From: a plasmid
Sequence record: NZ_CP145916.1
Direction: 5' to 3' (one strand)
Length of the DNA: 64,000 bases
Part shown: piece by piece, positions 3,821 to 15,463 of the stretch
Layout of the letters: each line of letters starts with the position of its first letter
How positions within the stretch are numbered: the first letter of the stretch is position 1
Notes under the pieces: generated by a model
What the model was told of the DNA's origin: nothing
Databases searched by the model: none
Seen by the model: the letters and a program-made list of their open reading frames with translations, nothing else
Position numbers and translations under genes: made by a program

Positions 3821-4084
3821 GAGGGTGCAGGGATGCGGAGTTTCAGCCATAAAAAAGGTAAAGGAAAAGACAGGTTTCTCAGCGCGTTAGTCTTTTATCG
3901 CTATATTGCATGTTGGTTTAATTTATCCATAAATGTCGCTGTGATAAAAATAAAAATGAACAATGAAAAGGGTAGGGGGAGAATGTCCCTTGCCGATAAA
4001 ACTGTTCCCGGTTTGTTATTTCTCTGCCCGCTGTTAAAAGTTGAAAGTTGATAACTTTGCAGTAAAATGCCGTTATCATATATA

Positions 4085-4100
4085 CTGTATAAATGTACAG
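4085..4100 (+). promoter_or_regulatory. LexA (SOS) box CTGTATAAATGTACAG for umuD
   Basis: Perfect CTGT-N8-ACAG motif 17 bp upstream of the umuD 5'-fragment ATG, followed by the SD aaggagag. Confidence 0.75.
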
Positions 4101-4116
4101 CTAAGGAGAGGCATTA

Positions 4117-4209
4117 ATGTCACTAAAACCTATGAAATCAGCCCCTGACACCAAAGAAACTATCCCTTTCTTTGGCGAGCTCGTACCCGCAGGTTTCCCT
4201 AGCCCAGCG
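4117..4209 (+). pseudogene. umuD: umuD/mucA-like 5' fragment (N-terminal ~31 codons), interrupted by element insertion
   Basis: Encodes MSLKPMKSAPDTKETIPFFGELVPAGFPSPA, matching the MucA/UmuD N-terminus (…IPFY…ISAGFPSPA) including the Ala-Gly cleavage site. The reading frame then runs into foreign sequence and stops at 4245. Confidence 0.75.
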
Positions 4210-4675
4210 CTTTTCCCATATTGCTCTTTTTTGTCAATGTTCTGAAATCTATTAATAAATAACGAAAAAATAATAAGATAGTAAGATAAATCTCGTTCAT
4301 ACCTACTTTTACGGCGTTGACAACTATCACTCGGTCGAGTTTTTTCACTGATCCCCGCTGGGATCCCCTAATTGGTTGCCTTAGCGCTCATCCGAGCAAA
4401 GTTGAGTTAGGCTAGTTAACTAAATAATATAAATGGCCTTGTCCGACTCAGGCGAGACGGAACAACTTCGGTGGCCTCGATAAGCGCTGGCCCACTCCGA
4501 ACCGTGAGAGTTTTTAAACAAACTGGTAAAGCAGACGCAATTCTCTTTCACTCGAAGCTGCTTTAAACCGCAGGTCGCGACCCATAACAGACGCTAATTC
4601 TTTAATCGATATTCGTTTTGATGTATCATCGCGAGCAGGAAACACCTTTCTTTATATCTAGGAAAAAACTATCGT

Positions 4676-5539
4676 ATGTACTCCAAATTTGTTGTTTTTG
4701 TATCGCTGTTAAGCAGCTTAACCCTCAGCATTCCTGCCAACTCTTCTCCAGACCTGATAGTCAACAGCATCAAAGAGGTAGAGCAAAACCTGGGTGCTAA
4801 AGTAGGAGTCTCAATCTACAGCGTTTCTGATGGTTACCTTTGGCATTACAACGGCGATTCACGTTTTCCGTTGATGAGCACCTTTAAAACTCTTGCATGT
4901 GCGAAATTGCTCCACGATGTTGAAACGGCGAAGCTGTCGATTGATCGATCTGTGAAGATTGAGGAACAAGACCTTATTACTTGGTCGCCGATAACAGAAA
5001 AGCTTGTTGGAGAGAGCTTTTCCCTCAAGCAGGCTTGCACGGCTGCAATGGTTATGAGTGACAACACAGCGGCTAATATAGTACTGGACGGTATTAGTGG
5101 CCCATCTGAATTGACCTTGTTCATGAAAGAACTCGGTGATGAAGTAACGCGACTGGATCGTATAGAGCCTCATTTAAATGAAGCGCGAAGCGGGGATGAG
5201 CGTGATACAACAACACCTAACGCGATTGTAAAAAGCCTCGGGAAACTGCTTTATGGCGAGAAACTCTCAAGTGGCTCTAAAGAACAATTAATTGAATGGA
5301 TGGCTGGCAACAAGGTGTCCGATAGCTTGTTGCGTTCAGTGCTACCAGAGGGGTGGTCAATTGCTGATAGGTCGGGTGCTGGTGGTTTTGGGTCTAGGGG
5401 AATCACCGCTGCGATTTGGTCAAATGAACAGCAGCCATTAATTGTTGCGATATATCTCACCCAGACTGAAGCTTCGTTTGACGAGAGAAATAAAGCTATT
5501 GCCAAAATAGGTAGAGAAATTTTCGCTTCTTATAACTAA
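4676..5539 (+). CDS. blaCARB-like: Class A beta-lactamase, CARB/PSE (carbenicillinase) family, divergent
   Basis: Has STFK, SDN, RLDRIEPxLNE and RDTTTP motifs, and RSG in place of KTG (LLRSVLPEGWSIADRSGAGGFG), as in PSE-1/CARB-2. Roughly half the residues differ from CARB-2 as recalled from memory. Signal peptide present. Confidence 0.85.
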   Translation: MYSKFVVFVSLLSSLTLSIPANSSPDLIVNSIKEVEQNLGAKVGVSIYSVSDGYLWHYNGDSRFPLMSTFKTLACAKLLHDVETAKLSIDRSVKIEEQDLITWSPITEKLVGESFSLKQACTAAMVMSDNTAANIVLDGISGPSELTLFMKELGDEVTRLDRIEPHLNEARSGDERDTTTPNAIVKSLGKLLYGEKLSSGSKEQLIEWMAGNKVSDSLLRSVLPEGWSIADRSGAGGFGSRGITAAIWSNEQQPLIVAIYLTQTEASFDERNKAIAKIGREIFASYN

Positions 5540-5859
5540 GGCAACTTGGCGGGTACTAAGCACCTCAGCATCATAAGATGAGAGGTGTTCTTTCAATCTT
5601 CCTTTATAGCGGCAGCTAAATCGCAGCTAAAGACATCGATCAGGCCGCTCCGTATGTCCGCATTGTGCCGACTCCGGTATATGCGCAGGAAAATCATCTA
5701 ACGTCCGGTTCCGGAAATTTCAGTTGGCTCTGTTAAAGCAACAGTGAGCGTATGCCCTCTCCCCCTTTAACGCTGCTCCTCAGAGACGGCTATACGGTAG
5801 TTATCTGCGGCCGTAGTTGAGCAGTGTGGTCATTTAGCAGTATCTCGCGCTATAAAAAA

Positions 5860-5875
5860 CTGTATGTATATACAG
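5860..5875 (+). promoter_or_regulatory. LexA (SOS) box CTGTATGTATATACAG within a 36-bp palindrome
   Basis: Perfect CTGT-N8-ACAG motif at 5860-5875. It is embedded in the palindrome CTATAAAAAACTGTAT-GTAT-ATACAGTTTTTTATAG (5850-5885), 50 bp upstream of the 5925 ORF. Confidence 0.75.
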
Positions 5876-5924
5876 TTTTTTATAGTAGGCTTATCTTGTA
5901 GAGCAAGGTGAGTGAGATCTCTTT

Positions 5925-8285
5925 ATGAGTCGGGTTTCCCCAAAAAGTTTTCCCCAAGGTATCATTACGAAAGGCCACACAGATAAGAATTTCCAGTTTC
6001 TGGTTCTGTCCGGTAATGTTTTGCTTCTAATTCAATCTCACCTTGCTAATTTACCGCCGTCCCAGCGGCGGAGCGCTAATAGGGCTGTGTTCTACTTCGA
6101 ATGTTTCCTGTGGCTAATCAACCATCCACCTATCACAAGCACTCTAGACCTTCGAACAAATGCTTTTCTGAGCATTCAGCGCCTTTTCTATGGCGCGCTT
6201 TACTCAAACTGTTTTCTGGCTGCTGAAGTAAAATACTCAGGCAGACAGAGACTTGTCCGGTATTTCTTTAAACTCCTCGCTGAGCTGTCTAAATCGTCTC
6301 CTATCAATATTTTTGTATATTCAGACCTTACAGATAGCCAGGTCCGAGAATGCATCGCTCAGTTTGAAGCTATTGGGATTGACCCTGTACGAGCAGCCAA
6401 GCTCATGGGGTGGCAAGTCGCAGACAGAAGCGCGAACTCATTTCGATTAAAGATGGGAGCCATCTTCGATGTTTTTGGGCCTGATTTTACGATGGAATTA
6501 CACCAGGAGAGTAAGAAGCACGCCTTGGCTCATAGTCATTATAGTAACTACGCTAATGTGGTCTCTCGATTTGATGATTTTCTGCGCTGGTATGACGATG
6601 ATCCGATAGACAGACCTTCCTTAAACGCTCACGTGCTCCAAGATCCAGTCTTTGTATATCAGCTTTTCTGGAGCTTTCAGCGCTGGCATTTCGAAGGGTA
6701 CTCCGAGCGGAGCCAAACCCAACCGACGGAACGGGTGTTGGCAAACCTTCAGCGCCAATGGATCAGAATCATCTGTTGGGCAAAGTCTGTTCTGGTTAGC
6801 GGAGGGCTTATGTGTTCCCCGCTTGGCGATGTGTGGCCCGAAGGGAGCAAAAAGCTCACTCGATTCCTCCATGAAGTAGGCCACCATCGATACGCTGATG
6901 GTGAATCCCTTGTATCACAAAAGCTTTTGACCCAGATCCCACTGTCTGTCACAGATAAGGAGGCAACGGAGCTTCTATTCAGACAGATCGAAGACGACTT
7001 CAATAAAGTCGTTCGGTGGGCTCGACGGGAGATTGATCACATAGCTCATCGTTTGAACGTTATTGATCAGGCCTGCGATCAAGGGGATCTGATAACGCTA
7101 GGTTCTCGAATATCTGCTCGGGCTTATGGCCAGCCTGTGATGGGGATGAACAGCCTTATCAGAACTGTAAAAGAAACCCACAACGGATTTGCAATCATCG
7201 ACCACGCTATGCGCGGCCACTTGGTAAGCGCAACAGGGAGTTCTTTTTCAACATCGGAGTTAGCGGCGAATCTGGCTATGCCGACGAAGTATGCGATTGC
7301 TCCCATCGCTCTCTGGCTAGTAGCGCAGCATCCCGTTCTGACCGAGGCATCTCTATTGAAATGCGAGTTATTCGACCGAAACGGTAAGCGAACCGGCTTT
7401 GTTAAGACCGACTCTGGATCTGTGCTTGTTGTGAAGAAAAACCGGAAAGGGAAGCAACAGGAGGTTGTACTGAGCGACGACGCAGCTTCGGTGGTCGAGC
7501 TGCTTATCCAGATCACGGCCCCGGTTAGGCGCTATCTCAAGGAGAAAAGGGATGATGCCTGGCGACGATTGTTCATCGTCGCGGGTGGTCAGGGCTTTCA
7601 GGAACCTTACACTTTCACAAACCAGACCAGCTTCGCCAAGATCCTCCGGCAGAAAGCCTTTATACAAGCTCATAGCGCCGAGTTAGGAGACATGGTCTCC
7701 GTATTGTCGCTGGCCCGGATAAGGGCTACCGCAGGTGTTCTCGTCTACCTCAAGTCGTTAAGCATAGAGAAAATGGCAGAGTCACTAGGCAACTCGAAAC
7801 GAGTCGCCATGAACCATTATCTGCCGCCTACCATCATGCAGTTTTTCCAAGAGCGGTGGGTCAGGATTTTCCAAAACGCGGTGATTGTCCACGCTATGAA
7901 GGACTCTCCTTATCTGCTTGATGCAACGGACTTTAGCAGCATGAGTGAGTTGGATATGTTTCTAGAGGCGCATGCCCTTCGAACGCCGCCTGAAGAACCC
8001 GAACAGCTGAGTAGTTCCTCTGAGCAAATATCTGGTTCGTCAGATCCAGAGATCGTTATTTCTATCGATGAAGGCGTTCTTGGTGTGCTCCTCTCGCTAA
8101 AAATGGCCGTTGAGCAAGCTGGCCCACGTGCGGCGGGAACGGCTGTGTACTGGAGCCAGTTCGCAGCGAAGATAGAGGCTCACATTGAATCTGATGGTTA
8201 TCTAGATCCATATATCCGCGGTTGTCTAGTTAAGGCTAAGGGGATAGCGAATCCTCAACAGTTTGAGGGTCTAGTCTATGGATGA
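5925..8285 (+). CDS. Large tyrosine-recombinase-fold protein, possibly catalytically degenerate
   Basis: The C-terminal region (LSLARIRATAGVLVYLKS…LGNSKRVAMNHYLPP) resembles the R…(H)xxR…Y box of phage integrases, but the conserved His is absent. First gene of an overlapping four-gene operon. Confidence 0.5.
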   Translation: MSRVSPKSFPQGIITKGHTDKNFQFLVLSGNVLLLIQSHLANLPPSQRRSANRAVFYFECFLWLINHPPITSTLDLRTNAFLSIQRLFYGALYSNCFLAAEVKYSGRQRLVRYFFKLLAELSKSSPINIFVYSDLTDSQVRECIAQFEAIGIDPVRAAKLMGWQVADRSANSFRLKMGAIFDVFGPDFTMELHQESKKHALAHSHYSNYANVVSRFDDFLRWYDDDPIDRPSLNAHVLQDPVFVYQLFWSFQRWHFEGYSERSQTQPTERVLANLQRQWIRIICWAKSVLVSGGLMCSPLGDVWPEGSKKLTRFLHEVGHHRYADGESLVSQKLLTQIPLSVTDKEATELLFRQIEDDFNKVVRWARREIDHIAHRLNVIDQACDQGDLITLGSRISARAYGQPVMGMNSLIRTVKETHNGFAIIDHAMRGHLVSATGSSFSTSELAANLAMPTKYAIAPIALWLVAQHPVLTEASLLKCELFDRNGKRTGFVKTDSGSVLVVKKNRKGKQQEVVLSDDAASVVELLIQITAPVRRYLKEKRDDAWRRLFIVAGGQGFQEPYTFTNQTSFAKILRQKAFIQAHSAELGDMVSVLSLARIRATAGVLVYLKSLSIEKMAESLGNSKRVAMNHYLPPTIMQFFQERWVRIFQNAVIVHAMKDSPYLLDATDFSSMSELDMFLEAHALRTPPEEPEQLSSSSEQISGSSDPEIVISIDEGVLGVLLSLKMAVEQAGPRAAGTAVYWSQFAAKIEAHIESDGYLDPYIRGCLVKAKGIANPQQFEGLVYG

Positions 8286-10401
8286 TAGCAGCGCGCTACC
8301 TCGCGAATTGGACTTCATAACGCGATCAGTCGATGCGGATCTAGGACTATTCCGAAGCGCTGAATGGCTCAATTCGAAGTTCGATGACCCAGTATGGAGC
8401 GCTCGTTTTGCCGAAAATGGCAAGAGAGACACTGTTATTGATTTCAGGGTTAGGCTCGATGATGGGCTACTGCTCACCCACCCAAGACATCACAACCTTT
8501 TGGAAAGCATAAAGGCATATTTATGTCTGTCGTCCCATCCGTTGGCCACCGGAGGCAGCCAGCTTGCCCCGAAGACGGTACAGCAAAGGGTTCGTACGAC
8601 CTTAGGTATCATCGACTACTTTCTCCTGAGAGCCGAGCATTTCCAACTGGCATCCCATCAGTTCAAGCTAATTACGCCGCATGACATAACTGAGTTCATG
8701 GCTGTGTTGGCTACTGATCAGTACGCTAAGAACAATCTCTACGCTGCGCGTGAAGAGCTACAGCGTTTCCTTCGCCTCAACAGCCATCAGGTTACGAAGC
8801 TGGAGACACAGTACGTTCTATCAAAGGTTCCTGGAATCGCTATTGTTGATGATGTAGATGAGAGCAACCTTGGCTTATCAGAGTCGGAGATTGTTGCGGC
8901 TAGGATTTTTCTGTGGATCAACGGAAACTACAAACGCATACCGATTAAGGCGGGTAGTCATGGGCATTCATTTTTTAGTCATCAAGTTTCTCCAAACAGT
9001 ATCTACTCTGAAATTTATCATGAGCGAACTTTAGTGACGCCTAAATTCCGGGGGCTGGTGCTGGACGAGCTCCACTTTAGCCCATCCGAGAAGACCTTTA
9101 GAGAGTATCCCATGGTTTCGTCCATGGTTCTGTATGATGATCCACTTCCCTCTGAGGCTGGGGTTGATTTCTACCGACAATCGCTTAAACGGATGGAACT
9201 CCTTAAGCTCTGTGGGCTGGACCATATCAACCATCTTTCGCTAACAGCCTTGGATAATAGAGCTTTCCTCGGGCAACTTAAGATGAAGGGCACCGGGCGT
9301 TACCGGTCGCTGCCTCGGGACGTCGTATTTTCATCGTTTCGGAACGCAGTGGAGTTCTACTTAGATTTGGGTCAGGTCCTTATCGATGGTTATCTGGCCT
9401 TGGCGCGAGAGGCTGATGCACGTGGATGTGCCATCGGGGATTTGACCCAATCTGAAACGATAGAGCTGATCCCAAAGAGGTTGCGAGACATCGGAGTAAG
9501 TATCTGGGATCTCTCGGCAGATTTTCGCGGGCAGAACCGTGGAGGCGGTAGCGCTCTGTTTTTTAAGCGGTTCAGAGAGAATGAGGGACTGCTCCAGCTA
9601 ATTGAGGTACTTTATGGTGCCATCTGGATAATACTCGCTGCGCTTAGTGCCAGACGTTCTGGAGAGCTTAGGGATCTTAAGGCAGATACCTGCCTTGTTA
9701 AGAAGTCCCATGGCTATTATTTACAGTTTGACTTGCGGAAACGGAACTTCGGCAAGACTCGTGAACAGGTCCTTCGTCCCATTCCCAATGTCGCGGCCCG
9801 GTGCATTCTGAGCTTGGGTGATCTTCGTCAGAAGCTCTCCTTGCTTAGTTCAGTTACGATTTCAGATAGGCTGTTCAGCAAGCCTCATTATCGCGAAGTT
9901 GGCCTGTCTGCGATGGGTTCAGTAGACGCGGCCAAGGTGCTAAACCGCTTTTCTGACTATTTCGAAGTCCAACAGGACGCTACTGGGCATCGTTATTACA
10001 TTCGTACCCATCAACTTAGACGCTTCTTCGCTATGACATTCTTCTGGGCCGGCGGATTTGGCGGCCTAGACACACTTCGGTGGTTTTTGGGTCATACGAA
10101 TGTCGAGCATGTTTATCACTACATCACAGAGACCGTTCCAGGAGAGGTGTTGCGAAGAATCGGTGCCGAATACGCATCTGATGCACTTCTCATAGGGCAG
10201 AGCAACACAGAAGATCTGGGTAATCTCCTACGTGAGCGTTACGGATTGTCATCATTTTCCATCATGCAGTCGGATGAAGTCGCAGACTATATCGAAGACC
10301 TAATGATGGAAGGGTTGCTAAAGATAGAGCCAGTCTTCTTCGACACACCGACAGGAAAGCGCCATGAGATCCTCTTTAAAATCACCGGAGAAAATTCATG
10401 A
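8278..10401 (+). CDS. Tyrosine recombinase (phage-integrase family), 707 aa
   Basis: Box I ARRSGELRDL, HxxR in RTHQLRRFFAMTF, and the nucleophile Tyr in LGHTNVEHVYHYIT. The start overlaps the upstream stop. Confidence 0.75.
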   Translation: MDDSSALPRELDFITRSVDADLGLFRSAEWLNSKFDDPVWSARFAENGKRDTVIDFRVRLDDGLLLTHPRHHNLLESIKAYLCLSSHPLATGGSQLAPKTVQQRVRTTLGIIDYFLLRAEHFQLASHQFKLITPHDITEFMAVLATDQYAKNNLYAAREELQRFLRLNSHQVTKLETQYVLSKVPGIAIVDDVDESNLGLSESEIVAARIFLWINGNYKRIPIKAGSHGHSFFSHQVSPNSIYSEIYHERTLVTPKFRGLVLDELHFSPSEKTFREYPMVSSMVLYDDPLPSEAGVDFYRQSLKRMELLKLCGLDHINHLSLTALDNRAFLGQLKMKGTGRYRSLPRDVVFSSFRNAVEFYLDLGQVLIDGYLALAREADARGCAIGDLTQSETIELIPKRLRDIGVSIWDLSADFRGQNRGGGSALFFKRFRENEGLLQLIEVLYGAIWIILAALSARRSGELRDLKADTCLVKKSHGYYLQFDLRKRNFGKTREQVLRPIPNVAARCILSLGDLRQKLSLLSSVTISDRLFSKPHYREVGLSAMGSVDAAKVLNRFSDYFEVQQDATGHRYYIRTHQLRRFFAMTFFWAGGFGGLDTLRWFLGHTNVEHVYHYITETVPGEVLRRIGAEYASDALLIGQSNTEDLGNLLRERYGLSSFSIMQSDEVADYIEDLMMEGLLKIEPVFFDTPTGKRHEILFKITGENS

Positions 10402-10976
10402 AGAAAGCATCACGGCAGGTGTCTGCTCAGCTTGAGATTAGCAACAGATCTGTTCTTTCTCGCGTTGAGTATCTCGAATCGATTATTCACTCACCCGCCG
10501 AGCATCAAGAAAACATAACACTTTTGATCGCTTTGAAGAGCCAAAGTGGACTTGCAAAGCTGGCGGTTAGCGAAGCTTTTATTTCTCCTATGTCTCTCAA
10601 TACGCTTAAGAACAGAGCGAATGACATACTCCCTGGTGGGTTTACGACTATTGATCACCTGAGACGCCAGGCCGCAAAAGCTATTCACGATTCAACCGTA
10701 GTCAAGCCTTCATCGTCCTCTATAACCAAGCAGGACCTCAAAGATAAGATTAAGGCTCAGGAAAGGACCATCTCTCAGTTGTGGGATGAAATCGCACTGG
10801 TTACGAATGTTTTTAGAGAATCAGTAACACTCGCCCAACAGTTTGCCGAGAAATGCCCAGACCCGGCAGATCTGATCCTTTTCAAAAAGCGCCGTAGAGA
10901 GCTGCTTTTAATGTTCTCATTAAGCAAGCGGCCTCAGACGCCTTTACATGAGAGCCCGTCCAATGCCGAAGGATGA
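10398..10976 (+). CDS. Small accessory protein of the recombinase operon
   Basis: 192-aa ORF whose start and stop overlap the flanking recombinase genes (ATGA). Hydrophilic and probably helical. Confidence 0.5.
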   Translation: MKKASRQVSAQLEISNRSVLSRVEYLESIIHSPAEHQENITLLIALKSQSGLAKLAVSEAFISPMSLNTLKNRANDILPGGFTTIDHLRRQAAKAIHDSTVVKPSSSSITKQDLKDKIKAQERTISQLWDEIALVTNVFRESVTLAQQFAEKCPDPADLILFKKRRRELLLMFSLSKRPQTPLHESPSNAEG

Positions 10977-12369
10977 GAAACTCTATAATCTAACGAGCGA
11001 TGTTTTCCGATTACCTTACGGGGTTGATCGAAATAGCCACGTCCTCAGCGTCAGAGCTGATAACATTCCGCTTCTCTGTTGGCCCGATGGCAGGCCGTGC
11101 ACCGAGGCGAACCTATATATGCTGCACTGTTTTGAGCGTGGACTTTCCCGTAAGGAAGGCGGTGGGACACTTACTCAATATGCCAAGCTTCTTTCACACC
11201 TTATTCGCTTTTGCTTTAACAACAACTACTCATTCATAGGGTTGACTGATTCTCGCTTTTCACTATTCATCAGAACGCTCCAAGGAGAAATGGATCCACG
11301 AAAACCAGAGCAGAGAAAACGGAGAGCAGCCCATGTGGCAAACATAGGGAGAACCTGCCTCGGCTTTTTAGGATTCGTTGGAGAACTCTATCTAGAACCG
11401 TCGTTCGTCGGCGCCGCAGGAACGATCAGGGCTGAGACGAAGGAGTTCAAGCTGGCTGGTCAGAGAAAGCAGATAGTCCATACCTATTGGCATCACCATT
11501 CCTTTCCTAACCCCGAGCCTCCAACACGGCGCTTACCTATCAATTCTACAAATATCGCAAAACTGATCGAAGTGATTCCGGATGTGAGCACGACGACCTA
11601 TCAGAGAAGACGGCGTTTCATTCTGGTCAAGCTTTTGGAGATTACTGGGGCAAGGCGAGTTGAGATCGCGAACATCAGAGTCGAAGACATCTATAACGCG
11701 AGGAAGATGAAGCAAGAGCCTGTTCTCAAGGTCTTCACCGCCAAGCGCTCGGGAGGAAGGGAAGAGTACAGATACTTGCCGGTTTCCAAAATGGACCTTG
11801 AATTGATCGTAAATTTCATCGAAAAGTTCCGACACCGGATCATTAAGAAGACCATCGGTAGCGCTAGTGACTTGGGCTATCTGCTGATTTCGGAAAGTAG
11901 TGGACTAAGGCTCGCTACCGAGACGCTGACGAATGAACTACTGCTGCTTGCCAAGGCTGCCAAGATCGAAGAGCAAGCCTGCGCACACATGTTCCGGCAT
12001 AGATTCATTACCAAGCTTTTTGTGGCTTTGATTGAGCAACATGAATTCGAAAATGGGGACGATTTTCGGCGTGCTCTCCTGGATGGTGAGACCCTCAAGA
12101 GAAAGGTTCAAGAGTACACGGGGCATACTTCGATCAGTAGTCTTGAACCGTATATTCACTTGGCTTTCGAGGAAGTGGCGAGGTTTGGAAGTACCTTAGA
12201 CCTGATTAAAGCAAAGCTTGCCGTTGAATCGCTACGGTCCAATCTCAAGGACATTGCTATCGAACTCAGACACGGCAGGAGTCCTACTGAATTGAGCGCC
12301 CTCCTCCGCGACTATATCGACTTGGCGCTGGAGGAACTCAGTAGCGCCTCAATTTCTACAGAGAGCTGA
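10948..12369 (+). CDS. Tyrosine recombinase (phage-integrase family), 473 aa
   Basis: Box I GARRVEIANIRVEDI, HxxR in HMFRHRFIT, and the nucleophile Tyr in GHTSISSLEPYIHLA. Confidence 0.75.
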   Translation: MRARPMPKDEKLYNLTSDVFRLPYGVDRNSHVLSVRADNIPLLCWPDGRPCTEANLYMLHCFERGLSRKEGGGTLTQYAKLLSHLIRFCFNNNYSFIGLTDSRFSLFIRTLQGEMDPRKPEQRKRRAAHVANIGRTCLGFLGFVGELYLEPSFVGAAGTIRAETKEFKLAGQRKQIVHTYWHHHSFPNPEPPTRRLPINSTNIAKLIEVIPDVSTTTYQRRRRFILVKLLEITGARRVEIANIRVEDIYNARKMKQEPVLKVFTAKRSGGREEYRYLPVSKMDLELIVNFIEKFRHRIIKKTIGSASDLGYLLISESSGLRLATETLTNELLLLAKAAKIEEQACAHMFRHRFITKLFVALIEQHEFENGDDFRRALLDGETLKRKVQEYTGHTSISSLEPYIHLAFEEVARFGSTLDLIKAKLAVESLRSNLKDIAIELRHGRSPTELSALLRDYIDLALEELSSASISTES

Positions 12370-12375
12370 CAAGAT

Positions 12376-12753
12376 ATGGGCAGAATGAGTTCATATGGGA
12401 ATCCTGCTGCTGGGTGGGAAGAGGCTGAACTTAATCTTCATACGCTGGTGGTTACTCATCCAGCCAGCACGTACTTCTTGCGCGTGACAGGTGACTCCAT
12501 GCAGGATGCTCGGATACATTCTGGTGACGTGCTGGTGGTTGATCGCTCAGAAACTCCAGAGCAGGGTAGTATTGTTGTTGCCAGCATCGACAACGAATTT
12601 ACAGTCAAGAAACTCATCTTGCGGCCACGTTCATGCCTTATGCCGATGAACCCGGCATACCCACCTATCTATTTTGACCCTGAAAGTAACGACGTTGAAA
12701 TTTGGGGTGTGGTGACTTACTCATTAATGAAGCACAAAAAATGTATGGCCTGA
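12376..12753 (+). CDS. umuD: UmuD/MucA-like 3' portion, re-started by element-derived sequence (UmuD'-like truncated product)
   Basis: …HPASTYFLRVTGDSMQDARIHSGDVLVVDRS…EFTVKKL… (S24 peptidase Ser-Lys dyad). It lacks the N-terminus, which lies at 4117-4209. The new Met sits 6 nt after the recombinase stop. Confidence 0.8.
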   Translation: MGRMSSYGNPAAGWEEAELNLHTLVVTHPASTYFLRVTGDSMQDARIHSGDVLVVDRSETPEQGSIVVASIDNEFTVKKLILRPRSCLMPMNPAYPPIYFDPESNDVEIWGVVTYSLMKHKKCMA

Positions 12754-14006
12754 TCGACATTAATTCCTGCTACTGTGCCTGCGAGCAAGCATTCAGGCCC
12801 GATCTTGCTGGTAAACCCGTAGTAGTTTTGTCAAACAATGATGCCAGCTGCATAGCCCGTAACAAGCAGGCGAAAGCCCTTGGTATAAAAATGGGCGAGC
12901 CATTCTTTAAAATCAAAGATCTCATAGAACGGAACAATGTCGCTGTTTTCAGTTCAAACTATGCCCTTTATTCCGCATTTAGTTCCCGGTTTGCATCTGT
13001 TATAGAGTCACTGACTCCGCGTAGCTCAGTGTATTCAATCGATGAACTTTGGTTTGATGCCACGAATATCACTGGTTTAATGACTCTTGATGCCTATGGC
13101 CGCATGTTGCGAGAAGAGGTACAGCGTCAGACAACGCTTACTTGTGGTGTTGGGATAGCACCGACAAAAACACTCGCGAAATTGTGTTCTCATGCTTCAA
13201 AAACCTATCCGGCAACTGGCGGAGTTGTCGCGCTTGATGATGTTACCCGTTTAGAAAAGCTGATGCGGCTTGTGCCCGTTGAAGACGTGTGGGGTGTTGG
13301 CCCACGGCTGGGTAAAAGGCTTCGGTTTATGGGAGTGGAAACCGCGTTTCAACTATCCTGCCTTGATCCTGTTCGGGTACGAAAGCAGTTCAATGTTGTC
13401 CTTGAGCGTACCGTCAGGGAACTCCGGGGGGAGCCTTGCATGGCGCTTGACGAAAATGATGTGATGAAACAGCAAATAGTCGTTTCCCGCTCCTTCGGTG
13501 AGCGAGTCACCAACCTTCATGAAATGCAGCAAGCCATAACCGATTATGCGGCTCGCGCTGCCGAAAAACTCCGGCAAGAAAAAGGGTATGTCTCTGTAAT
13601 TGGTGTTTTTATACGCACCAGCCCCTACGCAGTAAATGATGTACCTTATTCCAATCAGGCTACTGAAATGCTGGTGACTCCCTCCAACGACAGCAGGGAT
13701 ATTATTAATGCTGCACAACGCGCATTAAAACGGATCTGGAGGCCAGAAGTCCGTTATGCTAAAGCAGGTGTGATGCTTTGTGATATTCGCGAGCGTGAGC
13801 CTCAACTTGATTTGTTCACTGAATCGGCCCAGTACCGCAACAGTGAAAATCTCATGCAATTACTGGATACTCTCAACAAGCAGGGTAGACACAATTTGTT
13901 TTTTGCCGGACAAGGTATAAACCCCGTTTTCGCAATGAAGAGAAATATGCTATCCCCTGCATATTTGACTAGCTGGGATGATTTACCAAAGGTTAGGTTA
14001 GGATAA
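12741..14006 (+). CDS. umuC: Y-family DNA polymerase V catalytic subunit UmuC/MucB-like
   Basis: MYGLIDINSCYCACEQ… start typical of UmuC. Overlaps the umuD stop. ~420 aa. Confidence 0.85.
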   Translation: MYGLIDINSCYCACEQAFRPDLAGKPVVVLSNNDASCIARNKQAKALGIKMGEPFFKIKDLIERNNVAVFSSNYALYSAFSSRFASVIESLTPRSSVYSIDELWFDATNITGLMTLDAYGRMLREEVQRQTTLTCGVGIAPTKTLAKLCSHASKTYPATGGVVALDDVTRLEKLMRLVPVEDVWGVGPRLGKRLRFMGVETAFQLSCLDPVRVRKQFNVVLERTVRELRGEPCMALDENDVMKQQIVVSRSFGERVTNLHEMQQAITDYAARAAEKLRQEKGYVSVIGVFIRTSPYAVNDVPYSNQATEMLVTPSNDSRDIINAAQRALKRIWRPEVRYAKAGVMLCDIREREPQLDLFTESAQYRNSENLMQLLDTLNKQGRHNLFFAGQGINPVFAMKRNMLSPAYLTSWDDLPKVRLG

Positions 14007-14274: not shown

Positions 14275-15159
14275 ATGGATTTAAAAAAAACATTTGAACA
14301 GCTTACGGACGATTTACTCGCCCTGAAAATGCTGATCAGCGGTAGCTCGCCTCTGTTTTCCCAAGTCTCCGACATTCCGCCCGTCCTGCGGGGGGATGAG
14401 CATTTACCCATTTCGTATGTTGCCCCTGATCACCTGTACGGCCATGAGGCCATTCAGAAGGCGGTTGATATCTGGAGTGACCTGCACATCAAGCATGATT
14501 TTTCCCAGAAGTCTGCACGTCGTGCATCCGGTGTTCTGTGGTTTCCATCAGAAGATAATGCGTTTACGGTCGAGCTCGTTCGCCTGCTGAGCCAAATCAA
14601 TGCCCTGAAAAAGAGTATTGAGACTCACATCATTACGACCTACCAGACACGTAGCGCACGATTTGAAGCCCTGCATAATCAATGTGCCGGGGTGCTGACT
14701 TTACATCTTTACCGTCAGATCCGCTGGTGGAAGGATGAGCATATATCAGCCGTGAGATTTAGCTGGCAAGAAAAGGAGTCTTTGCTCATTCCTGACAAAG
14801 CTGAGTTACTCGTGCGTATGAGCAAGGAAGGTAGGGAGGATGGGAAAAAAGAGGTGCCGCTTGCGTTGCTGATGAAGCAGATCGTTTCCGTACCGGAAGA
14901 ACGACTGCGTATAAGGCGTCGTCTCAAGGTTCAGCCATCGGCTAACATTTCGTTCCGTAGCGAGCAACACCCGACTGGGAAGCTGACAATGGTCACGGCT
15001 CCGATGCCCTTCATTATTATTCAGAATGAACGGCCAGAGGTGAAAATGCTCAAAATCTATGATGCGAATGAGCGAATCAGCCGTAAGCGACGTAACGACA
15101 AAGTGCATACGGAAATCCTCGGTACGTTTCATGGCGAAAGTATCGAAGTGATTGCCTGA
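14275..15159 (+). CDS. tus: Tus-like replication terminus-binding protein
   Basis: Colinear similarity to E. coli Tus (EDEH(N/L)P; VLTLHLYR ~ LITLNAYR; RLKVQPSA ~ PVKVQPIA; APMPFIIIQNE ~ PTPLIALINRD). Confidence 0.65.
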   Translation: MDLKKTFEQLTDDLLALKMLISGSSPLFSQVSDIPPVLRGDEHLPISYVAPDHLYGHEAIQKAVDIWSDLHIKHDFSQKSARRASGVLWFPSEDNAFTVELVRLLSQINALKKSIETHIITTYQTRSARFEALHNQCAGVLTLHLYRQIRWWKDEHISAVRFSWQEKESLLIPDKAELLVRMSKEGREDGKKEVPLALLMKQIVSVPEERLRIRRRLKVQPSANISFRSEQHPTGKLTMVTAPMPFIIIQNERPEVKMLKIYDANERISRKRRNDKVHTEILGTFHGESIEVIA

Positions 15160-15229: not shown

Positions 15230-15463
15230 ATGTTACGTATAAATGTGTGTTTCGATGCCAGCAAGAAAGTGCCTGCTAAAATCCAGCAGGCATTACGAGC
15301 TGAGATAGAGAAAGAGATCTTGTCTAATTACGAACGTGGTGTGGTAAGTGTGGGGAAGGGAAGCAGCGCAGAAGTGTCGATCAGTGGCGTTGATGATGAT
15401 GAAAAAAAAGTAATAATGCAGAAGCTTGAAGACATCTGGCAAAGTGACAGCTGGTTGCCTTGA
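15230..15463 (+). CDS. dinI: DinI-like SOS protein
   Basis: 77 aa. Aligns with DinI (…VSV…KEDKQ…EILQETWES.DDWF ~ VVSVGKGS…DDDEKKVIMQKLEDIWQSDSWLP). Preceded by a LexA box. Confidence 0.65.
   Translation: MLRINVCFDASKKVPAKIQQALRAEIEKEILSNYERGVVSVGKGSSAEVSISGVDDDEKKVIMQKLEDIWQSDSWLP

Follow-up and report, generated by a model that had tools for sequence, protein, structure and literature searches.

An Integrative Element Inserted into umuD May Rebuild Its Target as an SOS-Controlled Substitute for UmuD'

Introduction

DNA polymerase V (Pol V) is the main source of mutagenesis during the SOS response, with cleavage of UmuD as its best-known safety delay. We report on a stretch of 64,000 nucleotides (nt) from the plasmid record NZ_CP145916.1, referred to below as the window, the backbone of which is an IncT/Rts1-type plasmid of Providencia. 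The umuD gene of this plasmid is split by an 8.2-kb site-specific element (window 4210-12402), and its 3' part continues in frame from a start codon provided by the element. On balance we consider it probable that the insertion rebuilds umuD as an SOS-controlled substitute for UmuD'. The anatomy of the insertion and of the fusion is near certain; the functional equivalence of the predicted fusion product to UmuD' appears about evenly balanced.

Results and Discussion

The umuD junctions and the fusion open reading frame

The uninterrupted umuD of plasmid NZ_MW864328 (locus L002), with the sequence ...VPAGFPSPAAGWEE..., served as the empty-site reference for both junctions. The left junction reads ...GGTTTCCCTAGC / CCAGCG / CTTTTCCCATAT, the bases just before CCAGCG being ...CCTAGC, and the right junction reads ...CATATGGGAAT / CCTGCT / GCTGGG. 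Since the left CCAGCG does not match the empty site and is identical in a second insertion (L001), it was brought by the element from an earlier site. The same hexamer is found as right-flank sequence in loci L019, L023 and L030. The host umuD promoter and its LexA box (4041-4100) now point into the left end of the element, and the open reading frame (ORF) of the umuD 5' remnant continues into the element up to a stop at 4243-4245, giving a remnant product of 42 amino acids (aa).

To the downstream ORF the element contributes only nine codons, MGRMSSYGN (12376-12402), before umuD resumes at Pro30. A sequence-only reading of this stretch had described an element-derived start 6 nt past the last recombinase stop, and ORF 12376-12753 is indeed present behind the TGA at 12367-12369. 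That reading had assigned MGRMSSYGNPA as a whole to the element; MGRMSSYGN stands, whereas the Pro-Ala is target sequence. Its estimate of a start some eight residues past the cleavage point has to be corrected, as the umuD-derived residues resume four residues past Ala25-Gly26. The loss of the N-terminal arm and of the Ala-Gly site from the product is borne out: both were left in the displaced 5' fragment (4117-4203), and neither Ala-Gly nor Cys-Gly occurs upstream of the core of the fusion at the aligned cleavage position. Retention of the S24 core was likewise confirmed by matches to Peptidase_S24 (Pfam PF00717, E 1e-25) and to UmuD (NCBIfam PRK10276, 133.6 bits versus a cut-off of 110). 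The catalytic Ser (GDSM) and Lys (FTVKK) are present and the whole globular domain is native. Gene callers and PGAP call the fusion ORF as a gene and annotate it as UmuD. NCBI records contain versions from the first start codon (ATG1) as well as from the alternative start ATG2 at 12385, which leads to a product of 122 aa.

Aligned to the E. coli UmuD' chains 1I4V and 1UMU, residues Y7-G8-N9-P10-A11 of the fusion pair with F26-P27-S28-P29-A30. The product therefore corresponds to UmuD' with five (ATG1) or two (ATG2) additional residues, before any removal of methionine. Positions 25-28 are S-Y-G-N compared to G-F-P-S in UmuD', with G25, P27 and S28 changed, the aromatic residue at position 26 kept (Y7 for F26), and the sequence native from Pro29-Ala30 onward.

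The overlapping umuC had been described as intact, which we can confirm (Table 1). Consecutive genes between 5925 and 14006 overlap or are separated by gaps of at most 6 nt, and no convincing terminator was predicted across this region. This arrangement gives a putative gap-free operon of six genes, ORF786-ORF707-ORF192-ORF473-umuD'-umuC.

A family of umuD-targeting elements

Among homologues of the last recombinase, identity declines gradually from 97% to about 25%. In the Providencia plasmid NZ_CP096356 (L001) the element of the window is found again, with an unchanged left CCAGCG and at the same codon of another umuD allele; PGAP annotates the fusion there as umuD from the second ATG. Relatives with 80-85% identity (a Yersinia-type plasmid, Cedecea and a Raoultella/Klebsiella-type chromosome) show identical four-gene order, umuD codon and orientation. 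A scan for the right-end motif in species-representative genomes and metagenomes revealed 14 further true junctions and one chance match. Together with those of the window, L001, L006-L008 and L030, these make up a set of 20 junctions.

M(G/A)RMS(S/A)YGN is in frame with an S24 ORF of normal length in 18 of the 20. One of the remaining two leaves the contig end in frame, and in the other umuD is rearranged after 18 residues. The targets comprise at least 14 distinct umuD alleles, 30-74% identical, in Providencia, Serratia, Hafnia, Cedecea, Pseudomonas, Thalassolituus and uncultured marine bacteria, and the left junctions of six elements fall at one same codon. Recombination at the Pro-Ala codons of the GFPSPA motif in a single orientation is thus shown by the junctions, with ORF786-ORF707-ORF192-ORF473 as the predicted four-gene module responsible. 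The significance of the in-frame start lies in these family-wide features of the relatives and not in the odds of a single case.

Exact copies of the window recombinases were found in records of Proteus, Morganella, Vibrio cholerae, Colwellia, Shewanella, Acinetobacter and Klebsiella, and relatives of the last recombinase at 25-38% identity sit on Pseudomonas megaplasmids. Those at about 49% (L011-L018) have their four-gene modules right after a truncated comM-like Mg-chelatase gene, together with an RND efflux pump cluster; sub-families therefore target different conserved genes. A blastn search of E. coli genomes with the recombinase and the right end gave no match. On a metagenome contig (ERZ1026892 NODE-2; L041 1676-11515) we observed an element of about 9.8 kb in which the two umuD junctions are present along with the SOS right arm and the start of the fusion. 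Homologues of the four recombination genes are all missing from it, and it is probably a non-autonomous derivative.

SOS signals in long and compact elements

The elements occur in two architectures. Members of the long form carry cargo between the last recombinase and the right end, including CBASS, Gabija-like and TIR defence genes. Their right arms contain an outward promoter of the sigma-70 type, with a -35 hexamer TTGATY, 17 bp, a -10 hexamer YATAAT and then a perfect LexA box (e.g. TACTGTATATAAACACAGT). The distance from the box to the downstream fusion ATG is constant at 109-110 nt. Between box and ATG lies a leader ORF, of which two versions exist. The first, present in seven arms (L008, L021, L025, L026, L028, L041, L043) about 71 nt upstream of the fusion ATG, has 27 codons and a Shine-Dalgarno sequence of -5.7 to -12.7 kcal/mol; its peptide ends ...IFS..DKIWAE and its TGA overlaps ATG2 (ATGA). 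The second, with 19-21 codons and the peptide MYKASSSTTV.NQKQLYFL, was found in five arms (L006, L007, L020, L027, L040) and stops 6 or 12 nt short of ATG1, either at the TGA that lies 6 nt before it or at a TAG 15 nt upstream of it; the TGA version has the same geometry as the recombinase stop in the window. The peptide of the leader looks conserved.

In the compact form (window, L001, L019, L022, L023, L030, L042, L044) the recombinase stop (GCTGA) is joined straight onto CTGACAAGAT of the arm. The C-terminus of the recombinase is homologous between both forms, and the compact form arose by deletion of cargo, promoter and leader. Its members are mutually diverged and reside in at least eight different umuD alleles, from which it follows that the deletion is old and that 36 bp of arm suffice for mobility. 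A recent deletion private to the window was ruled out, as the diverged compact elements L022, L023 and L042 share the junction. In Serratia marcescens MSU97 (L026 516-2200) an SOS-promoter right arm comes about 250 nt after the last recombinase with no cargo between them, a layout that may represent the minimal ancestor of long and compact forms.

SOS control of the recombinase operon, as proposed from the sequence at the outset, is supported by the perfect LexA box at 5860-5875 ahead of ORF786. In compact elements this box lies 64-65 nt upstream of ORF786 and is conserved in the window, L001, L030, L031 and L044; long forms are without a LexA box at that position. The window contains six strict LexA boxes versus 0.73 expected. 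In every architecture a predicted LexA box heads the fusion-containing transcript and the start of the fusion coincides with the end of an upstream ORF, which lends support to the suggested translational coupling of the fusion to the recombinase operon.

Indications of use and points against it

Indications of use are the layout of promoter, leader and start described above and the acceptance of the ORF by gene callers. In three occupied loci of the Serratia proteamaculans group, the ratio of non-synonymous to synonymous divergence (dN/dS) lay between 0.09 and 0.21 in the umuD part and between 0.05 and 0.12 in umuC, with dS up to 0.31 and no stops. Divergence of the element arms in these loci (1-4%) parallels that of the host genes (3-6%). 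Both observations suggest one ancestral Serratia insertion followed by purifying selection and an operon that has stayed functional.

Several points weigh against such a functional interpretation. The dN/dS argument presupposes that the Serratia insertions represent one old event. The Shine-Dalgarno sequence at the fusion start is weak (-2.9 compared to -9.1 kcal/mol for native umuD), and a consensus scan gave no clear promoter hexamers around the LexA box at 5860. The last 27 nt of the element (12376-12402) are nearly invariant in the 20 junctions, wobble positions included; a scan with the wobble positions of the nine element codons left free returned zero variation at these positions, which says nothing on coding constraint. 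The terminal 27 nt are thus constrained as DNA, and this constraint alone could explain both ATGs. Furthermore, an incomplete umuC or none at all follows 4 of the 12 evaluable related junctions. The gene breaks off near residue 76-77 at two unrelated loci and near residue 102 at another, among L001 (NZ_CP096356), L022 (Pseudomonas profundi) and L026 (Serratia marcescens), and is absent in L021, so the intact operon is not always kept. The cuts suggest a second site-specific insertion hotspot inside umuC, like that reported for integrative elements of the strand-biased circularizing type (SEs) and integron-like elements. With regard to the protein, the N-terminal end of UmuD' is conserved and was modelled beside the UmuC active site, and single-residue changes in this end are reported to affect mutagenesis (PMC11791011). 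An uncleavable UmuD without residues 1-17, in which seven extra residues are kept, was only weakly mutable (PMC5342242).

Proposed mechanism and alternative explanations

In the mechanism we propose, insertion at the Pro-Ala codons leaves the arm and the cleavage site with the 5' part and turns the 3' part into an ORF for a UmuD'-sized protein followed by umuC. SOS induction would then transcribe the recombinase module, the UmuD' mimic and umuC of the window together, with the fusion being translated by termination-reinitiation coupling. The fusion would dimerise and partner UmuC as a pre-cleaved UmuD' substitute without RecA*-mediated cleavage, and Pol V subunits would be produced under SOS control with no slow cleavage of UmuD in between. 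The sequence-only reading had likewise suggested Pol V components that bypass the cleavage checkpoint, whereby induction of the element may be mutagenic for the host. With full-length UmuD absent from the operon, its checkpoint, the ClpXP-mediated removal of UmuD' and the membrane retention of UmuC would be lost as well. Active mutasome assembly of Pol V would still need RecA*.

The fusion start might also be a mere by-product of the recombination site, an explanation we hold to be unlikely. Both ATGs would then stem only from the ATATGGG repeat, the match in frame would be luck fixed by site-specific insertion, and the umuD remnant would be poorly expressed or silent. The outward SOS promoter of the long arms would serve the element itself, for example in an excised circle, where it would read over the junction of the two ends into the left arm and the recombinase genes, much as the host umuD promoter does in the integrated state. 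This is in accordance with the wobble invariance of the terminal 27 nt, the position of both ATGs inside repeats, the weak Shine-Dalgarno sequence and the loss or cutting of umuC described above. Once the element is integrated, its left end is faced by the host LexA promoter, and the same idea was proposed for integron-like elements in rulB (PMC4542609). By a rough estimate, a random insert has an in-frame, stop-free ATG within its final ~36 nt with a probability of ~0.1. Leader ORFs with strong Shine-Dalgarno sequences, however, end exactly at the fusion start in two geometries, which would be needless for a circle-junction promoter, and the compact lineage, in which the SOS arm is deleted, has another LexA box upstream of the whole operon. 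The low dN/dS in the occupied Serratia loci and the full-length S24 ORF formed by the umuD 3' part in 18 of 20 junctions also argue against a by-product.

Quite improbable in our view is a fusion that is made without being equivalent to UmuD'. Inactive or altered UmuC complexes, or poisoned heterodimers with chromosomal UmuD or UmuD', would then damp or re-tune Pol V. SSYGN replaces GFPS, up to five extra residues are present and three of the first four UmuD' positions are changed, in the arm end whose sensitivity to single-residue changes is cited above (PMC11791011); the weakly mutable UmuD without residues 1-17 (PMC5342242) points the same way. On the other hand, the aromatic residue at the F26 position is kept, the sequence is native from Pro29-Ala30 onward, and the arm from residue 30 as well as the whole globular domain is untouched. 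That umuC is under purifying selection in occupied loci speaks for a polymerase that works. We retain the rebuilt, SOS-controlled UmuD' substitute as the overall explanation, at the strength stated in the Introduction.

Further features of the window

The coordinates of all features are collected in Table 1. The genes of the element, encoding a beta-lactamase, ORF786, ORF707, ORF192 and a tyrosine recombinase of 468/473 aa, all lie on the + strand. Both candidate start codons of the fusion fall within the ATATGGG repeats of the right arm, which are probably recombinase-binding sites. Profile searches with ORF786 and ORF707 against PDB sequences gave no significant match. Among the module proteins, hhalign paired ORF707 and ORF473 only in the GHT..Y motif region, and no match was obtained for ORF786, the fold of which could not be classified by Pfam, PDB profile searches or hhalign.

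Table 1. Positions of features in the window (one strand, 5' to 3'; a point marks features without strand).
Feature	Position	Strand	Details
Host umuD SOS promoter	4041-4100	+	-35 TTGAAA 4041-4046; -10 TAAAAT 4063-4068; LexA box CTGTATAAATGTACAG 4085-4100
Displaced umuD 5' fragment, codons 1-29	4117-4203	+	N-terminal arm and Ala25-Gly26 cleavage site (4189-4194)
Left-junction ~6 bp CCAGCG	4204-4209	.	unlike empty site (CCTGCT); boundary ambiguous by 2 nt
Integrative element, 8193 bp	4210-12402	+	junctions versus empty site; terminal inverted repeat TTCCCATAT 4213-4221, ATATGGGAA 12393-12401
Class A beta-lactamase cargo	4676-5539	+	CARB/PSE/GMA-like; under all named-family cut-offs
LexA box CTGTATGTATATACAG, perfect	5860-5875	+	within 36-bp palindrome; 65 nt upstream of ORF786
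ORF786, first recombination-module gene	5925-8285	+	without recognisable domain or catalytic motif
ORF707, large tyrosine recombinase	8278-10401	+	invariant R460, H578-x-x-R581, H606, Y615
ORF192, small accessory protein	10398-10976	+	without recognisable domain
Last tyrosine recombinase (ORF473)	10963-12369	+	468 aa from ATG 10963, 473 aa from ATG 10948; Pfam Phage_integrase; TGA 12367-12369 inside right arm
Right arm, 36 bp TGACAAGATATGGGCAGAATGAGTTCATATGGGAAT	12367-12402	+	two ATATGGG repeats (12374, 12393), one ATG each; encodes MGRMSSYGN
Fusion ORF, 125 aa	12376-12753	+	nine element codons and umuD codons 30-145; GDSM serine 12496-12498
Right-junction 6 bp CCTGCT (Pro-Ala)	12403-12408	.	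target-derived, equals empty site
umuC, intact, 421 aa	12741-14006	+	568 bits versus UmuC model; 13-nt overlap with fusion ORF; without own Shine-Dalgarno sequence
Further perfect CTGT-N8-ACAG LexA boxes, plasmid backbone	14248-14263, 15196-15211, 34985-35000, 39756-39771

Some observations concern the surroundings of the fusion. The host SOS promoter now runs through the 42-aa umuD remnant toward the co-oriented beta-lactamase gene (bla) 430 nt downstream (window 4041-5539), and expression of bla might be SOS-inducible via this promoter. The left end and bla (window 4204-5925, in one plasmid also including the LexA-box region) occur at more than 99% identity without recombinase genes in NZ_KY433363, NZ_CP031119 and NZ_OL964512, which are a Proteus mirabilis plasmid and small Providencia plasmids. 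The LexA box at 5860 is embedded in the 36-bp palindrome CTATAAAAAACTGTATGTATATACAGTTTTTTATAG (window 5842-5886). In L030 and L031 the flanks of this palindrome are altered on both sides (CCATAATAACTGTACAGATATACAGTTATTATGG), so the palindrome is kept beyond the LexA consensus. An intrinsic terminator at this position was ruled out, since the L030 version is without a T-run and yet the LexA box is kept. One of the backbone boxes is located 11 nt before a gene for a Tus-like (Ter-binding, Pfam PF05472) protein (14275-15159), and another lies immediately upstream of ORF 15230-15463.

Comparison with known systems

The umuC/rulB gene is a documented hotspot for multi-recombinase elements, for example integron-like elements in Pseudomonas (PMC4542609) and SEs with tmexCD-toprJ (10.1101/2022.09.22.508988, PMC13491359). 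Similar to these, the present family uses multiple tyrosine recombinases, one fixed site in an SOS-regulated Y-family polymerase operon and one orientation, and carries antimicrobial-resistance and defence cargo. For integron-like elements, the host promoter was proposed to place the integrase under LexA control, tolerance to ultraviolet (UV) light was not reduced by insertion into rulB, and no insertions in rulA-like genes were found by the authors (PMC4542609). The unreduced UV tolerance hints at a functional rebuilt gene in that case. The present family differs in its target, umuD, and in bringing along an SOS promoter, a leader ORF and a start codon.

Like SEs, the elements carry about 6 bp from the old site to one junction and have the 6 bp of the target at the other (PMC10214605). 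Their gene order (ORF786, large recombinase, small protein, recombinase) is unlike the SE core intA-tfp-intB-srap, which lies beside attL and reads inward, whereas the module of the compact form reads outward to the right end. In a tblastn search of 72,556 plasmids with ORF707 (E 1e-3), only members of its own family were retrieved and no SE-bearing Vibrio or Klebsiella plasmids. A tblastn search with bla as a route to SE plasmids was swamped by TEM matches and uninformative. GInts resemble the family in having a recombination operon of four genes, which encode tyrosine recombinases and a small protein, and in their high target specificity, and outward transcription into the adjacent host gene is documented for them (PMC5385486). 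By description, ginABCD has three recombinase-like genes with the small gene last, and the operon at the 5' end of the island, whereas here the small gene is third and the module of the window is at the 3' end; umuD is not among the reported GInt targets.

SXT in prfC, studied by Hochhut and Waldor in 1999, reportedly replaces the 5' end and promoter of its target. In dusA-specific islands, the displaced 5' coding sequence and promoter are replaced by the element's own and the gene stays expressed (PMC4482086). The family described here shares with both a replacement 5' coding sequence given by the element end, in frame in 18 of 20 junctions, and a promoter in the long arms. Those elements restore an equivalent full-length protein; here, in contrast, the regulatory pro-peptide is dropped and the activated form would be mimicked. 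Engineered umuD' alleles (e.g. pRW134, UmuD'C), in which a start codon near the cleavage site bypasses RecA*-mediated cleavage, are in standard laboratory use (PMC4552617, PMC5342242). In comparison, the present fusion is natural and made by an element, with the N-terminus MGRMSSYGN-PA or MSSYGN-PA versus (M)GFPS-PA. Literature searches on umuD or rumA as an insertion target retrieved no description of a umuD-targeting family or of a rebuilt-UmuD' effect. New are umuD as the target, an SOS promoter, leader and start that come with the element, and the predicted mimicry of an activated form in place of a restored proprotein.

Conclusion

The junctions define a family of integrative elements specific for umuD, which complements the known umuC/rulB hotspot. 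Annotations of "UmuD" with about 118-127 residues may be element-made fusions. The fusion trait is conserved, looks purpose-built and is directly testable with standard umuDC genetics. Going further, a widespread family may have evolved to turn umuDC/rumAB operons into SOS operons that make a pre-activated UmuD' mimic, with no cleavage timer, no checkpoint by full-length UmuD and no ClpXP shut-off; in this general form the idea is tentative and, on the present comparisons, rather doubtful. If the rebuilt gene does substitute for UmuD', mutagenesis of the host or plasmid would be faster or stronger on each SOS response, and in the compact lineage SOS induction would also turn on the recombinases of the element. 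Elements that spread beta-lactamases, efflux pumps and phage defence would then also rewire the mutagenic response of the plasmids, integrative conjugative elements and chromosomes they enter.

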